Sequence record: OL362041.1
DNA: 64,000 nt
Origin: Escherichia phage vB_Eco_OMNI12
Reading direction: 5' to 3' (one strand)
Under the pieces are notes generated by a model. That model searched no databases, was not told the DNA's origin, and saw nothing but the letters and a program-made list of their open reading frames with translations. How positions within the stretch are numbered: the first letter of the stretch is position 1; every line of letters begins with the position of its first letter. The position numbers and the translations under genes were made by a program. Below are positions 8,859 to 42,804 of this stretch, piece after piece.

Positions 8859-8882
8859 ATCAATTCCTCAAAGGCAATTCAT

Positions 8883-32401: not shown

Positions 32402-32546
32402 TTTGTTCTCTCTAGGTTTGGGCCATTCCATGGCGCATGAATTGTCCATTTCTGTATTTACCCATTACCGCACTTGGGCTCGACCTTATTACAGGTTGGC
32501 GGGAATCCCTCACAGAATCATGAGGTCCAGGTTATTCCCATGTTAT

Positions 32547-32963
32547 TTAAATGTAAATATTTTTGCCGTAATACTTATACCAGTGTGGCTTCATTAAAAT
32601 TTTTTCATCGAGTCGTTGTTGACTCAACTTAATAGCTGATTTGCATGGATTATAATCATTTTTTCATTCTACTGGAATATCGCTGATGTCAGGAACTTCA
32701 GTATCTTTTATACTGAACCCGCGTTTTAAGCATTCCGTTATAATGTCCGATTGACGCTTTCGCAAAAATTCTAACTTATCGTAAAAGAAAGTAACATGAC
32801 CAGAACCTAAAATAAATTTAGAAGATATTTTAAAATCTTTAACGCGCTTACCGTTTGCCACATGCTTACGAACTATACCAAAAACACGCGGCAATTCACG
32901 GTATTCTGCGATTAAATGTTGATCAGCAAGTTCAGATACTAAAGTCAAATTAATACGAGTCAT
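32547..32963 (-). pseudogene. denV: denV (pyrimidine-dimer glycosylase, endonuclease V) interrupted by in-frame TGA
   Basis: 99-codon ORF ends at TGA (32666-32664); same frame continues 38 codons ending WYKYYGKNIYI, collinear with remembered T4 endo V (138 aa). Confidence 0.7.
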
Positions 32964-33022: not shown

Positions 33023-33553
<531 letters not shown>

Positions 33554-36530: not shown

Positions 36531-36794
36531 TTATTTCATATTATTGAAATATTCTTCTGCGATTTCGTCGTTATCATGGTAAACTTTAGAAGACAGTTTA
36601 ACATAACCTTCTGCTGTGAACATATTAATCACAACTTTTACAGTATACCACTGACCGTCTTCATTACCCATTACTGCGTAAGTTTCAAACATCGGATGAT
36701 CAGGACCGATAACTTTAATATCATTCACTGTACGACCGAAATCTTCTGAAACGCATTTCATAAAGAAGTTGAACAGTTCGCCGTAATTATCCAT
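36531..36794 (-). CDS. hypothetical protein
   Basis: ORF-track N-terminus (..FFHGTIQLSTT..) is translated promoter; start moved to ATG 36794-36792, 87 aa. Confidence 0.45.
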   Translation of the reverse strand: MDNYGELFNFFMKCVSEDFGRTVNDIKVIGPDHPMFETYAVMGNEDGQWYTVKVVINMFTAEGYVKLSSKVYHDNDEIAEEYFNNMK

Positions 36795-36831
36795 TTCATT
36801 CTCCAAGTTGTTTTCTGTATCAGTAGTTGAT

Positions 36832-36866
36832 AGTTGTATAGTACCATGGAAGAACAGAGATGTAAA
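36832..36866 (-). promoter_or_regulatory. T4-type early promoter
   Basis: -35 TTTACA (36861-36866), 17-nt spacer, -10 TACTAT (36838-36843). Confidence 0.6.
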
Positions 36867-36989
36867 CAGTTTTGTGAAAAAATTTTTAGGGAATTCTAGG
36901 GCAGGGATGGGCAATTAAAGGATAGGATAATATATTATAAAGGGTATAAACTAAATGATGCCTAGAGAGGTCCAGAAAGGCCTAGATAC

Positions 36990-37016
36990 CAAAAAGCCCT
37001 ATCATTTAGATAGGGA
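36990..37016 (-). terminator. intrinsic terminator
   Basis: CCCUAUC-loop-GAUAGGG followed by CUUUUUGG, after stop of ORF 37024-37587. Confidence 0.6.
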
Positions 37017-37023
37017 TTTAAAA

Positions 37024-37587
37024 TTATTTACCTAGTTTACTTATTATAGCTTCTGCAGCAGCTTTTAGCTTAGATGCAGTGTTAATACGATTTTTAATTT
37101 CAGTATACGCATCGCCAAGAACATCAAGGCTATCAGAATAAACACTTACACTATTGCGTTCGCTATTTGAAATAGAACCTTTAGTTTTGCGGTCAAAATC
37201 GGTGTACACGTCTTGAAGATCGCGGGCTGCCTTCTTTGCATCATCCAATGCATCAAGAGCTTTATTCAAAGCATTAACGTATTTTTTAGTGTCGAACATA
37301 TTCTTAGAAATTTTAACAGGTGCGCGTTCAGGAGTAGCTAACACAGATTTAGGAACCTGAGCGCCAGATGCCAATTTCTTAGAAATTTTGAAAAATGCTT
37401 TATTGAATTTATTTTCTTGACTCATTGTAAAAGAACTATTATCGATGTTGTACATTTCAATAGCTTTAGCTTTCCACTTAAGAAAATCGCCGCGGTCTTT
37501 TGGGTCCAATTGGAAGAATACTTTAGTAAGATCTGCTTCAGATGGTAATTTTGCTGCTTCGGTTAAAAATTCGGCATAGGTTTTCAT
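37024..37587 (-). CDS. internal-protein-like head protein (capsid-targeting N-terminus)
   Basis: 187 aa; N-terminus MKTYAEFLTE-A matches T4 internal-protein targeting/cleavage motif; Lys/Ala-rich. Confidence 0.55.
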   Translation of the reverse strand: MKTYAEFLTEAAKLPSEADLTKVFFQLDPKDRGDFLKWKAKAIEMYNIDNSSFTMSQENKFNKAFFKISKKLASGAQVPKSVLATPERAPVKISKNMFDTKKYVNALNKALDALDDAKKAARDLQDVYTDFDRKTKGSISNSERNSVSVYSDSLDVLGDAYTEIKNRINTASKLKAAAEAIISKLGK

Positions 37588-37676
37588 TTAAAATCCTTGA
37601 AATAATTTATCGGTTGGTTATTAATTATTTATTACTTTGTTACTATCCGTAACAGCGTTATCCGAGTGATTCAAAC

Positions 37677-37705
37677 TAAAAAGCCCCAACCTTTCGGTCG
37701 GGGCT
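37677..37705 (-). terminator. rho-independent terminator (GNRA loop)
   Basis: AGCCCCGACC-GAAA-GGUUGGGGCU followed by UUUUU. Confidence 0.75.
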
Positions 37706-37712
37706 AAGAATG

Positions 37713-38186
37713 TCATTTGATTTGTTTAGCAGACCAAATGCGGTCTTTAATAATTTTTTGGATGTCTTCAACATACTCAAGAGAGTGAACATGTGGATTA
37801 TCTTTGAAACTATAAGCACGGGCTAACTTTTGGCCTTCGGTTTTGATTACTAAAAGCTCTTTAAGGATAGCTTCATATTTAGCGATAATTCCTTTAACGA
37901 TATTTTTTTCTTGTGCCGCTTTAGGATCTGCTTTAGGAGCAGGTTTACCCGAAGCCTTTGCAAAAGCAGCGCCAGTAGCAACTAAACTTTTCCAGGCCAT
38001 ACTAACTGCATTTCCCGTAAATCCTTCCGCTTTCATGTCGCGTGCAAACTGGAATCGCGATTCATCAGAAGCATCTTTATAGGAATATTTACCCGCGGCA
38101 ATGGCAGCTTTTGCAACAGCTTGAATTTCGGTGCTAGATGCTTCATTTAACACCGCTTCATTTAAAAATTGAGTATATGATTTCAT
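37713..38186 (-). CDS. internal-protein-like protein (capsid-targeting N-terminus)
   Basis: ORF-track start lies in RNA/terminator region; start moved to ATG 38186-38184 (AGGAA upstream); 157 aa; N-terminus MKSYTQFLNE-A. Confidence 0.5.
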   Translation of the reverse strand: MKSYTQFLNEAVLNEASSTEIQAVAKAAIAAGKYSYKDASDESRFQFARDMKAEGFTGNAVSMAWKSLVATGAAFAKASGKPAPKADPKAAQEKNIVKGIIAKYEAILKELLVIKTEGQKLARAYSFKDNPHVHSLEYVEDIQKIIKDRIWSAKQIK

Positions 38187-38224
38187 CTTATTTCCTGTTT
38201 TAATTTGTAGATTTAATATACTAA

Positions 38225-38232
38225 TATTTATA
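38225..38232 (-). promoter_or_regulatory. late promoter (TATAAATA)
   Basis: Minus-strand TATAAATA 39 nt upstream of ATG 38186. Confidence 0.5.
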
Positions 38233-38234
38233 CC

Positions 38235-38262
38235 AAAAAGCCCCAACCTTTCGGTCGGGGCT
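38235..38262 (-). terminator. rho-independent terminator ending tRNA/stable-RNA transcription unit
   Basis: Same hairpin as 37677-37705 followed by UUUUU. Confidence 0.75.
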
Positions 38263-38269
38263 AAGCCTT

Positions 38270-38580
38270 GCGGCAACCTTGTCGGGGTTCCACCTGCTAA
38301 GACAAGTGTTTGTACGAAACGCCGGGATTCGAACCCGGTTATTAAGTAGTTGACGCTACTCAATATTTTTAAAAGGCCATATCTCGACCATATCCGAACG
38401 TTCCGTCAAAAACGCTACTCGGCTTACGGCAAAGATATTTCCTCGAATCGATAATTCGGTGCGCCGTTTCTGCTGTGGTGTAAGAGGGCATCAACAAATC
38501 ATAAAGATTTATTAACGCAATTCCTTACCCAGGGAACATCAGTCCGACGACTTACCGGTAGCGACCCGGTTTCTTGTCTG
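38270..38580 (-). ncRNA. tRNA-like small stable RNAs (T4 species 1/2, rnaC/rnaD-like); boundaries approximate
   Basis: No ORF; T-arm-like CCGGGUUCGAAUCCCGG element; lies between tRNA-Arg and terminator as in T4. Confidence 0.5.
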
Positions 38581-38658: not shown

Positions 38659-39324
38659 TTAAAATTTCATTTTTCGACCTTTAAACCATCCTTCTGGAAT
38701 TGGGTCAGTTTTCTTAATACGTTTAGAAACTTTTTCATCTAATGAATGAATCCACATCATACCAAATTGGGAATTCTTTTCACCTTGTTGGTGTTTATTT
38801 TTGGCGTGAGATTCTTTCATTTTATTAATAGTTTCAAGAGTATGGGTCTTACCCAAGAAAGATTTAATATTTAAAAATTTCTCTCTATACTTAGGATTAT
38901 CCCAAAGCTGTTTAAACCTTTCTGAACCCATTTTACGATATTTTTCTTTAAGGTCTGGGTCGTTCTCAAATCTGGTTTTAAAAGCAGCAGCCCCTTTTAA
39001 GGAAGCTTCTTTCTTTTTATCCAAATATTCTTTAGTGTTTAAATGGTCCCAACCACCTTCACCACCTAATTTCAAATTATAAACATCAGGGCGCTTTAAA
39101 AACTCTTCAGTCACAATATTCTTTTCTGACTCAAACATAGAGGTTTTATCGTCAAAGAACTCTAATATTTCTTTAGAGAAATTTTCTATACCATACTTGT
39201 CTTGGGCTCTTTTTAATAATTTACCAGAACCCATATATCCATCATCTAAATTTTCGGTAGAATGAGCGCCTATATAGATTTTATTATTAATTTTATTTGT
39301 TATTTTATAAGTGTAATGGAACAT
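38659..39324 (-). CDS. segB: GIY-YIG homing endonuclease SegB
   Basis: 221 aa; GIY-YIG motif YKITNKINNKIYIGAHS; sits inside tRNA cluster as in T4. Confidence 0.8.
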   Translation of the reverse strand: MFHYTYKITNKINNKIYIGAHSTENLDDGYMGSGKLLKRAQDKYGIENFSKEILEFFDDKTSMFESEKNIVTEEFLKRPDVYNLKLGGEGGWDHLNTKEYLDKKKEASLKGAAAFKTRFENDPDLKEKYRKMGSERFKQLWDNPKYREKFLNIKSFLGKTHTLETINKMKESHAKNKHQQGEKNSQFGMMWIHSLDEKVSKRIKKTDPIPEGWFKGRKMKF

Positions 39325-40023: not shown

Positions 40024-40539
40024 TTAAAGCAAATCAATCATTTTAACGGTTGGCAAAACAATTTCTTTTTCAATATAAGCAAATTCGACACGTTCAACTA
40101 CACGCAAGAAATCGTAATCATAGTATTCAGAAGCATAGCCAAGAATATCAATAAGTCCTTGAGATATCTCATCGCCTTTCACAAAGAACAGGTCGAATAC
40201 GCGGGCTTCGTCTTCTTCAGATTTATCACCAAGGTCTACTTCGATACCAAAGACCTTTTTAATAAATTCCGGTTGGAGTTGGTCTGAGAACAGTCCTTCA
40301 ACCAGATATTCGTAGATAATAAGCGAGCAACGACCGAATGGTGTATTACCGCAATAACGTTCGGCTTTGGTGCTAGAATGACGGCTCTTAAATTTCTTCA
40401 AGAGATATTTAAACTGTTGGAGCTCATGCTCTTCCACTTCAAACAATGTTTTGGTTTTATAGTTGTCACCATCACTTTCATAGGTAGTGACATCAATTAC
40501 GTAGCCCTTAGGAATTGTACTGCCTAAACGAATATTCAT
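40024..40539 (-). CDS. hypothetical protein
   Basis: ORF track 171 aa. Confidence 0.5.
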   Translation of the reverse strand: MNIRLGSTIPKGYVIDVTTYESDGDNYKTKTLFEVEEHELQQFKYLLKKFKSRHSSTKAERYCGNTPFGRCSLIIYEYLVEGLFSDQLQPEFIKKVFGIEVDLGDKSEEDEARVFDLFFVKGDEISQGLIDILGYASEYYDYDFLRVVERVEFAYIEKEIVLPTVKMIDLL

Positions 40540-40543
40540 TTAA

Positions 40544-40834
40544 TCACCATACCATATTAATGTAAGTATACTCAATACATTCAAGATTTAAAGGATTCTT
40601 GAAAATATCATATTCAAGAGGGCCTTTTTCTGTTTCAATAAAGAAATCAAAGTTAACTGTGTTAAATTTACGGTCTTCCTTCACTAATTTAACTTGAGAA
40701 GATGAACGGTCAATGTAAACCTTTTCAACTTCAAAACATGTTAAAATGCCATAATCATCAATCAAAGCTTTAGCCGCGTCTTGATCATATTTATATCCAT
40801 TTTCAATGGATGATACTTTCGCATAAAGAATCAT
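40544..40834 (-). CDS. hypothetical protein
   Basis: ORF track 96 aa. Confidence 0.45.
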   Translation of the reverse strand: MILYAKVSSIENGYKYDQDAAKALIDDYGILTCFEVEKVYIDRSSSQVKLVKEDRKFNTVNFDFFIETEKGPLEYDIFKNPLNLECIEYTYINMVW

Positions 40835-41420: not shown

Positions 41421-41442
41421 TTTATTCTCCTCAGTAGTAGAT

Positions 41443-41477
41443 AGGGTAATAGTATCACTACCCTATCTAAAAGTAAA
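41443..41477 (-). promoter_or_regulatory. T4-type early promoter with 11-bp-arm palindrome
   Basis: -35 TTTACT (41472-41477), 17-nt spacer, -10 TACTAT (41449-41454); palindrome tagatagggta/taccctatcta around -10. Confidence 0.6.
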
Positions 41478-41478
41478 C

Positions 41479-41712
41479 TTATTTTTTACGAAAAATTGAT
41501 TTATTTTCTGCTGCCCATTTTTCAATAACTGCAGCAGGACCAGTAACAACAATTTTATCACCGTAATCTTCTGCGGCGAGTTGACCGAAATTATCTAATG
41601 CATCACGAAGAACTCCATGAGGCATTTCACCCATTTTATCTTTCTTGCCAGTGTAAATAAACTCAACTTTTACATCAGCAGTTTCAGCAATAAATTCTTG
41701 GTAAGTTTTCAT
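41479..41712 (-). CDS. ipI: internal protein I-like (capsid-targeted, putative anti-restriction)
   Basis: Start at Met 5 of ORF track; N-terminus MKTYQEFIAE is the T4 internal-protein capsid-targeting sequence; adjacent to 57B as ipI in T4. Confidence 0.6.
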   Translation of the reverse strand: MKTYQEFIAETADVKVEFIYTGKKDKMGEMPHGVLRDALDNFGQLAAEDYGDKIVVTGPAAVIEKWAAENKSIFRKK

Positions 41713-41740
41713 TTTGATTTCCATTTGGTTTTGTTTTGAT

Positions 41741-41775
41741 AGGGTAATAGTATCACAACTAAAACCCTATGTAAA
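41741..41775 (-). promoter_or_regulatory. T4-type early promoter with palindrome
   Basis: -35 TTTACA (41770-41775), 17-nt spacer, -10 TACTAT (41747-41752). Confidence 0.6.
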
Positions 41776-41788
41776 CAACTTTGTGAAA

Positions 41789-42046
41789 TTATTTTAAATC
41801 TTCTAATCGTTTCTTCATCTTAGAACCATTTTTAGCAATTTCTCCTGCATCGGAGCATAATGCTAAAAGTGCTTTAACTTTAGTTTGGTCTCCTTTAAAA
41901 GATGAAGGATCGACCGCAGCAGCAAGTTCTTTAATACGAGAGAAAAGACGCTCAGCTTCAGCTAAAGCCATTCCAAGCTTTACTTCCATACCGTGGGAAG
42001 ATTCAGTGATAGTAGTTTTTGTAGCAAACTCTTTGAAAGTTTTCAT
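41789..42046 (-). CDS. internal-protein-like small protein
   Basis: 85 aa; N-terminus MKTFKEFATK resembles capsid-targeting sequence; AGGAAAA SD. Confidence 0.5.
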   Translation of the reverse strand: MKTFKEFATKTTITESSHGMEVKLGMALAEAERLFSRIKELAAAVDPSSFKGDQTKVKALLALCSDAGEIAKNGSKMKKRLEDLK

Positions 42047-42071
42047 TTTTATTTTCCTAATTAATTTTGAT

Positions 42072-42106
42072 GAGGTAATAGTATCACTACCTCATCAGTA
42101 TGTAAA
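42072..42106 (-). promoter_or_regulatory. T4-type early promoter with 9-bp-arm palindrome
   Basis: -35 TTTACA (42101-42106), 17-nt spacer, -10 TACTAT (42078-42083); palindrome gatgaggta/tacctcatc. Confidence 0.6.
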
Positions 42107-42119
42107 CAACTTTGTGAAA

Positions 42120-42804
<685 letters not shown>

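Follow-up and report, generated by a model that had tools for sequence, protein, structure and literature searches.

The DNA analysed here is a 64,000-nucleotide stretch of Escherichia phage vB_Eco_OMNI12 (sequence record OL362041.1; hereafter the window), and it carries two neighboring minus-strand genes, A (37024-37587) and B (37713-38186), whose products open with a leader of the type found on the internal proteins (IPs) of phage T4. Our preferred reading, to which we assign a probability of roughly 0.68, is that A and B are two monocistronic late modules encoding T4-type internal proteins of the family phrog_2280, and that they are stacked in a third IP locus, with the tRNA/rnaC terminator on one side and the early promoter of e.8 on the other. 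At the level of sequence, both modules are built in the same manner: the hairpin of the preceding unit, the motif NATAAATA, 38 nt that include the Shine-Dalgarno sequence, an open reading frame (ORF) with a capsid-targeting leader, and a hairpin of its own.

Leaders and layout of genes A and B

The leader of A reads MKTYAEFLTE↓A and that of B MKSYTQFLNE↓A, compared with MKTYQEFIAE↓A in T4 IPII and IPIII (the arrow marks the predicted cut by gp21). By sequence match, the gp21 site L/I-x-E↓A is predicted at residues 8-11, as LTE↓A in A, LNE↓A in B, and IAE↓A in IPII and IPIII; a second LNE↓A is found at residues 13-16 of B. Searching all six frames of the window with the strict leader pattern returned three ORFs only, namely A, B, and an Ip6-like gene (41479-41712). 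An earlier note on this DNA had claimed an N-terminal motif of T4 IP type for both products, and the match of both leaders to the IPII/IPIII pattern bears this out at the level of sequence.

The predicted mature proteins are small and basic: 177 aa, 19.6 kDa, and an isoelectric point (pI) of 9.5 for A, and 147 aa, 16.0 kDa, and pI 9.5 for B, with 24-32 Lys+Arg (T4 IPII and IPIII have a pI of 9.56 and 9.65, respectively). The ratio of nonsynonymous to synonymous substitution rates (dN/dS) against relatives is 0.08-0.12 for A and 0.03-0.07 for B; by this measure, both ORFs are under strong purifying selection and the genes are real. Both proteins match phrog_2280 (“unknown function”) end to end (2e-53 for A, 2e-60 for B), whereas T4 IPI-III and IpIV fall in PHROGs titled “internal virion protein”. 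A relocation of ipII/ipIII as the source of A and B was rejected, since BLASTP similarity is limited to the leader and the PHROGs differ. In a tblastn search of phage records, B was found in 511 and A in 164; among the matches listed, all are annotated “hypothetical”. Pfam and NCBIfam searches of A and B returned no family.

Pairwise BLASTP aligns A and B over the leader only, hhalign gives a weak C-terminal match (24 residues, 37% probability), and the leader DNA of the two genes is 74% similar over 42 nt. AlphaFold models predict the same architecture for both, in which a helical leader precedes an N-domain of three helices and a disordered Pro/Lys/Ala linker connects to a long helical hairpin, with an AF2 pLDDT of 75 for B and 59 for A (low confidence); a Foldseek search of the B model against the PDB gave no match. 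Their common family, this predicted architecture, and a tandem of A-like and B-like genes in Yersinia phage fHe-Yen9-01 (described below) make it likely that A and B are paralogous.

The window derives from a Tequatrovirus, and its closest record is Yersinia phage fPS-90, with 97.6% identity over 16 kb and 100% over the 1.5 kb around A and B, so that the two are related but distinct phages. All genes of the region lie on the minus strand. In the direction of transcription, the tRNA cluster with segB leads into rnaC/rnaD, a hairpin (38235-38265), the consensus T4 late promoter TATAAATA of B (38225-38232), a Shine-Dalgarno sequence AGGAAA (~38192-38197), and gene B (38186-37713; 157 aa; ORF begins MKSYTQFLNEAV). 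There follow an identical hairpin (37708-37678), a 44-nt spacer, the sequence AATAAATA (37633-37626), which is the putative late promoter of A, a Shine-Dalgarno sequence AAGGA (~37596-37600), and gene A (37587-37024; 187 aa; ORF begins MKTYAEFLTEAA). Gene A is followed by a hairpin of another sequence (37015-36997), then by the conserved flank GGTATCTAGGCC, and finally by e.8 with its early promoter. The earlier note had described IP-like genes adjoining the stable-RNA region, with B bracketed by two identical 31-bp hairpin terminators (37678-37708 and 38235-38265) and preceded by a late promoter, and each of these statements holds, the site lying between e.8 and rnaC.

The classical location of such genes is vacant. 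In T4, ipII and ipIII are located between denV and e; in the window, this locus is empty, with a gap of 59 nt between the start of denV at 32963 and the end of e at 33023, which confirms the near adjacency (given as 60 bp) that had been reported for the two genes.

Four natural states of the locus

Related genomes present the locus in four states, whose sizes, taken as the distance between conserved anchors on the e.8 side and the rnaC side, are additive. T4 is empty, with one hairpin only, and measures 49 bp. With A only, ESh36 and ECO07P1 measure 736 bp (49 + 687); with B only, JK38, RB18, and SG1 measure 604-608 bp (49 + 555); and the window, with A and B, measures 1293 bp (49 + 687 + 557). 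A census with 91-nt junction-specific probes against 50,697 phage records (coverage of at least 80%) found the empty junction in 78 records, A only in 37, B only in 276, and A+B in 108 (126 with a 1.5-kb query), counts that are to be read as proportions and not as independent events, as the collection is redundant. T4 is among the matches listed for the empty junction. Judging from these genomes, A and B are non-essential genes that are present or absent among close relatives.

T2, T4, T6, and PST each contain one hairpin between the e.8 flank and rnaC, and no gene. The comparison with the gene order of T2, T4, and T6, which the earlier note had proposed, therefore shows that none of the three carries either gene and that the arrangement is not common to all T-even phages. 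The empty site in these phages probably explains why the classical literature is unaware of the locus.

Alignment of the four states places the ends of the insertions and deletions at the hairpin, to the base. The A-only genome equals the A+B genome minus one 31-bp copy and gene B, and is therefore the exact product expected from recombination between the two copies. B-only genomes carry a hairpin copy on both sides of B, and copy 1 (37678-37708) forms the joint between the A and B modules. The suggestion that B is a cassette that can be gained and lost is supported by the four natural states and their additive sizes, with a crossover at the repeats as the presumed step.

Homologous exchange involving two hairpin copies would then remove or add module B (557 bp), either through an unequal crossover or through excision and integration of a circle, as has been shown for PeSL elements. 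Exchange between the two copies would delete B, yielding the A-only structure from A+B or the T4 structure from B-only. Conversely, a cross of an A-only with a B-only phage inside the common hairpin would give A+B, and it would do so only in the order rnaC-B-A, because the terminator of A itself differs. In Tequatrovirus A+B loci, rnaC-B-A is the only gene order seen.

An alternative is that the hairpins are mere terminators and that the polymorphism was spread by ordinary recombination in the conserved flanks (e.8, rnaC/tRNA) between co-infecting T-even phages, without any exchange between the 31-bp copies. In fact, mosaic breakpoints do fall within coding sequence: PYps35T shows no difference from the window over 36600-37880 (1.28 kb) but 66 in the next 0.8 kb, the switch lying inside gene B, while ESh36 (A only) matches the window exactly throughout module A and differs in e.8. 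Because maps of single-nucleotide polymorphisms reveal such breakpoints inside gene B, recombination in the flanks during co-infection is, on this sequence evidence, at least as important as hairpin exchange in spreading existing alleles. The age of the arrangement and the differing conservation of the two hairpin copies (both described below) also fit this explanation. But flank exchange moves alleles and cannot create them, the ends of the indels are all at the hairpin to the base, the empty site retains exactly one copy, and the sole gene order seen is the order that hairpin homology permits. We therefore regard flank exchange as a full explanation as possible, with the odds against it; the two processes are compatible with each other, and the hairpin accounts for the origin of the alleles.

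We also considered hitch-hiking on the neighboring SegB, and dropped it, as the presence of segB does not follow the cassette state: segB occurs with an empty site in T4, T6, and PST and with B in SG1, and is absent from JK38, RB18, ESh36, and ECO07P1, which carry B or A. In the window, the SegB-type GIY-YIG homing endonuclease gene (38659-39324) lies inside the tRNA cluster, ~0.5 kb from B. A separate observation concerns LR597660.1 (Escherichia phage T4_ev151), by name a T4 derivative, which carries the A-only junction that is absent from wild-type T4; this suggests that T4_ev151 gained module A by recombination with another T-even phage.

Hairpins and promoters at the module junctions

The two 31-bp copies (AAAAAGCCCCAACCTTTCGGTCGGGGCTAAG) are identical, and the bases flanking them differ on either side. 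No further copy with up to 3 mismatches was found in the 64-kb window, nor did any occur among 100 shuffles. Read on the minus strand, each copy forms a stem of 10 bp that is capped by a GAAA loop and trailed by U5, with a free energy of ~-20.5 to -21.6 kcal/mol and a z of ~-3.9. Copy 1, whose hairpin proper occupies 37682-37705, is the intrinsic terminator ending the B transcript; copy 2 (38235-38265) is the terminator after rnaC and closes the tRNA/stable-RNA cluster. The intrinsic terminator of A (36991-37015, minus strand) consists of the hairpin CCCTATC-TAAAT-GATAGGG (36997-37015) and a U-tract (36991-36996), and folds weakly (-12.7 kcal/mol, z -1.6). It is a 63% copy of the 31-bp repeat family, is conserved in all A-bearing phages, and has only AAAAAGCCC (plus strand) in common with the 31-bp repeat.

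The TATAAATA of B, labeled “predicted late promoter” in the fPS-90 record, lies 2 nt past the U-tract of the upstream hairpin and 38 nt before the ATG of B. Its counterpart AATAAATA matches 7/8 positions and is also exactly 38 nt from the ATG of A, which is why we treat it as a putative late promoter of that gene. All homologues examined keep the motif NATAAATA at a distance of 31-38 nt before the ATG. Many T4-like phages have A or T at position -13 of their late promoters (PMC1524935).

The two copies of the repeat differ in their conservation among relatives. The rnaC-proximal copy is unchanged (31/31) in 14/15 Tequatrovirus loci examined, the other being Shigella phage A2 with 2 mismatches, as would be expected of a selected terminator under the explanation that confines recombination to the flanks. 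The B-distal copy drifts: it has no mismatch in the window, fPS-90, PYps35T, and ESh32, 1 in JK38, RB18, fD1, PsgM02F, and A2, 2 in Pu-Krd-SF4, 4 in SG1, and 7 in Mosigvirus OLB35. Because the B-distal copy carries 1-7 mismatches in these other relatives, the exact identity of the two copies is, by sequence comparison, a trait of one lineage, and the duplication is old.

We note that ~30 nt after the hairpin of B (AGTTTGAATC...GCTGTTAC; window 37640-37677) are common to the window and OLB35 (~1990-2030 of its locus). They are followed by a perfect TATAAATA and an unrelated gene without a capsid-targeting sequence (CTS; MSLYTELNKK) in OLB35 but by gene A in the window, so that the spacer moves together with the hairpin and not with gene A.

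As to the context of the junctions, the rnaC/rnaD stable-RNA region is at approximately 38310-38560 (minus strand), a placement transferred from the T4 rnaC annotation; in T4, the distance from rnaC to the hairpin is 48 nt. An Rfam search of the region found tRNAs only, and no family for rnaC/rnaD or for the 31-bp hairpin. On the other side lies the e.8 homologue (36531-36794, minus strand; 87 aa; phrog_2678) with its early-type promoter (36838-36866, minus strand).

Packaging and role of the products

Under our preferred reading, the gp55 RNA polymerase would transcribe A and B late, the 10-residue leader would carry both products into the scaffolding core of the prohead, and gp21 would cleave them after Glu10. 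The cut predicts peptides starting at Ala11, namely AVLNEASSTEIQAVAK for B and AAKLPSEADLTK for A. The resulting basic products (~16 and 19.6 kDa) would remain in the head and be injected with the DNA, and by analogy with Ip1-3, each of which blocks a different GmrSD, they would most likely neutralize host defense. The T4 biology behind these packaging steps is reportedly that of the CTS work of Mullaney and Black, the gp21 L/I-x-E cleavage rule, Repoila 1994, and Silas 2025.

Virion proteomics of phage fD1 bears on the first part of this scheme. The B orthologue g140, which differs at 3/157 residues, was flagged as a particle-associated protein (“PPAP”) at the strict threshold in liquid chromatography-tandem mass spectrometry of virions (Table S3, PMC8309999), in a preparation in which 113 phage proteins were scored, including thymidine kinase, DenV, and NudE, together with 672 host proteins. 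We consider this detection supportive but weak with regard to the packaging of B. The fPS-90 publication contains no proteome data.

Conceivably, A and B are not encapsidated at all, and their common N-terminus is a translation-initiation or 5′-coding module spread by recombination, the proteins being late and cytoplasmic. The packaging and processing of the family are indeed predictions from sequence, PHROGs and GenBank label its members unknown or hypothetical, and the similarity of just 74% between the A and B leader DNAs can be listed on the same side. Against this, the leader is conserved at the amino-acid level, as the T4 CTS pattern ending in L-x-E↓A, in homologues of 24-40% identity that use different codons. 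The classical IP genes of the same window bear the same leader, the placement behind late promoters suits a head component, and the B orthologue of fD1 was detected in virions. We therefore hold a cytoplasmic role to be very improbable.

Packaged proteins need not act against host defenses. A and B could mainly be structural, neutralizing or organizing the packaged DNA as proposed for IPIII-type proteins, an idea that fits their basic character, the proximity of mature A to IPIII in size and pI, and their low dN/dS. The window phage is without ipII/ipIII, so that some basic IP may be needed, and IP lysines touch DNA phosphates according to a review (PMC3012670). Yet the genes are dispensable in nature, T2, T4, and T6 being without both and 37 + 276 records having one only, and all three T4 IPs, the basic IPII and IPIII included, are specific GmrSD inhibitors, Ip1-3 each inhibiting a different GmrSD (PMC12373910). 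We consider a mainly structural role unlikely, and favor injected inhibitors of host defense.

An old arrangement in several genera

Members of phrog_2280 occur in Tequatro-, Mosig-, Dhaka-, and Jiaodavirus and in Yersinia phage fHe-Yen9-01, with the leader kept and the remainder divergent, and they occupy the same site, right after the tRNA/rnaC hairpin. Homologues at 24-80% identity from several genera, fHe-Yen9-01, and metagenomes all keep the leader. B-like genes are found in Mosigvirus (MKSYAEFLTE) and Dhakavirus (MKTYNEFLTE), a third cassette type (MYTFNEFLAE) in Mosigvirus PNJ-6, and in Jiaodavirus a B-type N-domain is fused to a different C-domain behind the leader MKFKEFLAE. A profile search of 1.8 billion representatives added few more distant members (MLKFNEFLAE, MINFSDFLNE, MKSFSSFLNE, and MISFNEFVDGNLITE), all of them phrog_2280. 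In these alignments, the protein body diverges (<40% identity) but the leader M-K-(S/T)-Y-x-(E/Q)-F-L-x-E↓A persists from genus to genus, and the arrangement is old and widespread and not a recent insertion.

A more distant locus bears on ancestry. In fHe-Yen9-01, the order is tRNAs, hairpin, TATAAATA, an A-like gene, a B-like gene directly after it, and a hairpin. The A-like protein (MLQYNEFLKE) aligns with A over its full length at 24% identity (E 1e-4), and the B-like gene has the leader MLEYSEFLKE. Apparently, the A-B gene pair was present before the T-even genera split, and because this distant phage has the A-like and B-like tandem after its tRNAs, the empty site of T4, T2, and T6 was probably derived by deletion.

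Two of these loci show further details. The third-type gene of Escherichia phage PNJ-6 (~2220-2970 of its locus), annotated as 128 aa, ends at a poly(A) run, and the next frame resembles, by eye, the C-terminal half of the fHe-Yen9-01 A-like protein; if intact, the gene would encode ~200 aa. Slippage, a frameshift, or an error in sequencing could explain the interruption. In fHe-Yen9-01, a 52-aa leader-bearing ORF (MKTYIEFINE; locus 1700-1858) lies between tRNA-Trp and tRNA-Gly and partially matches phrog_3684.

Relation to known internal protein loci and cassettes

A and B share with the loci of T4 IPI-III and Ip4-Ip10 type a 10-residue leader ending in L/I-x-E↓A and products that are small, basic, and non-essential. 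As in the T-even IP loci, the genes form individual modules flanked by repeats of regulatory DNA, and presence or absence is combinatorial among close relatives; by analogy, the expected role of A and B is likewise that of injected inhibitors of host defense. Unlike the T4 IPs, they have no similarity past the leader and belong to phrog_2280 and not to the “internal virion protein” PHROGs. They also lie between e.8 and rnaC, in contrast to the classical loci (denV-e and tRNA.4-57B), and are flanked by a G+C-rich terminator and a late promoter, as opposed to an early-promoter/inverted-repeat element of ~70 bp. Between the A and B modules, the minus strand shows no promoter of early type. Repoila et al. 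1994 (EMBO J 13:4181) reportedly proposed repeat-mediated module exchange at the two classical IP loci.

The arrangement also recalls the PeSL/PmSL cassettes (Arbiol et al. 2010, PMC2839356; Comeau et al. 2014, PMC4122927), where a stem-loop terminator by a promoter brackets single non-essential ORFs. In both, the empty allele retains one element, excision and integration between flanking elements are proposed, and the modules are transcriptionally insulated. PeSL excision has been demonstrated experimentally in the form of mini-circles, and IP genes are described as occupying two polymorphic loci with flanking repeats and as absent elsewhere (PMC2839356). The PeSL promoter is early or middle; here, the adjacent promoter is the late TATAAATA, present at the upstream copy only, with no sigma-70-type site between the modules. 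Moreover, PeSL is a composite of promoter and stem-loop, whereas only the 31-bp stem-loop is repeated in the window; this hairpin also terminates the stable-RNA cluster, and the cassette is known from genomes alone. By analogy with integron cassettes, single-ORF modules are stacked promoter-proximally at one recombination-prone site; unlike in integrons, an integrase and attC/attI are missing, each module has its own promoter, and exchange presumably employs the general T4 recombination machinery.

One could go further and regard the hairpin closing the tRNA/stable-RNA cluster as a site dedicated to capture, comparable to a PeSL but with a late promoter and integron-like in its effect, at which capsid-tagged modules are inserted, stacked, and excised via small circles. 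The phrog_2280 proteins would then be injected two-domain inhibitors, in which swaps of N- and C-domains (B-type versus Klebsiella-type C-domains) retarget host defenses, possibly other than GmrSD. We consider this extended scenario decidedly unlikely.

Other modules and oddities in the window

At the ipI locus of the window, three copies of a ~71-nt element (41436-41506, 41734-41804, and 42065-42135; 61-86% alike), each containing an inverted repeat that overlaps a sequence resembling a T4 early promoter, bracket the Ip6-like gene (41479-41712; MKTYQEFIAE) and an Ip5-like gene (41789-42046; MKTFKEFATK...ITE). More distant copies are at 8876, 22103, and 22583. The ~71-nt element appears to be the flanking element of Repoila 1994.

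In fPS-90 and PST, an IpIV gene (157 aa; MKTYQEFITE↓A; fPS-90 locus 1164-1637) lies between vs.8 and denV. It is cleanly absent from the window at ~32546-32548, and the CTS genes of the window are therefore the two at the ipI locus together with A and B only. Codon 100 of denV (32664-32666, minus strand) is an in-frame TGA in place of TGG (Trp) in fPS-90, with which the 138-codon gene would end after 99 residues. The frame past the TGA is intact and its differences are mostly synonymous, so the TGA either arose recently as a nonsense mutation, is a codon that is read through, or reflects a sequencing error.

Finally, fPS-90 lacks a segment of ~530 bp (40046-40575; ORF 40024-40539, minus strand, 171 aa) that the window carries between the tRNA cluster and tRNA.2-like genes. 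At its site, fD1, T2, and Mosigvirus records have ORFs of equal length (516 bp), the comparison covering length and position. This segment may be another present-or-absent module.

Discussion

Taken together, the leaders, the module layout, and the four states of the locus argue for A and B as stacked late modules for T4-type internal proteins. Several points weigh against this reading. A repeat of 31 bp offers little length for homologous recombination in T4, the joint of module A with the e.8 flank lies in the tail of the hairpin and has only 9 bp (AAAAAGCCC) in common with it, and the hairpins as sole crossover points had to be rejected, given the breakpoint inside gene B in PYps35T. Gene A is without a perfect TATAAATA. 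With regard to function, the low dN/dS of both genes is unlike that of a fast arms-race protein, though presence/absence variation is high, and the family and fold searches (Pfam, NCBIfam, and Foldseek for B) returned nothing suggesting anti-defense activity. The PPAP flag of the fD1 orthologue is weak owing to the contaminated preparation, and the packaging of A, as well as the cut after Glu10 in both proteins, is predicted from the leader.

The biology is of a known kind, that of polymorphic, cassette-like genes for capsid-targeted injected proteins. What departs from the published picture is the locus, the flanking element, the family (phrog_2280 is nowhere annotated as IP), and the age. 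The e.8-rnaC site, as a third and so far unannotated IP locus with hairpin junctions, is thus a modest extension of known biology and involves no new mechanism. Our literature search found no paper describing the A and B genes, an earlier mention in Comeau et al. 2007 or Repoila et al. 1994 being possible, and a search for the leader sequences returned nothing relevant.

The e.8-rnaC locus corrects the view that IP genes are confined to two loci. Its four alleles (none, A, B, and A+B) offer a natural system for measuring the gain and loss of modules driven by terminator repeats in T4-type genomes, and the leaders of A and B are extra natural variants of the tag used for packaging foreign proteins into T4 heads. 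Host immunity encounters internal proteins before any other phage product, and the presence of an IP-like family in ~500 sequenced T-even phages of therapeutic type, where all are called “hypothetical”, provides a candidate list of injected anti-defense proteins. The A/B family is a likely contributor to host-range differences among these phages.

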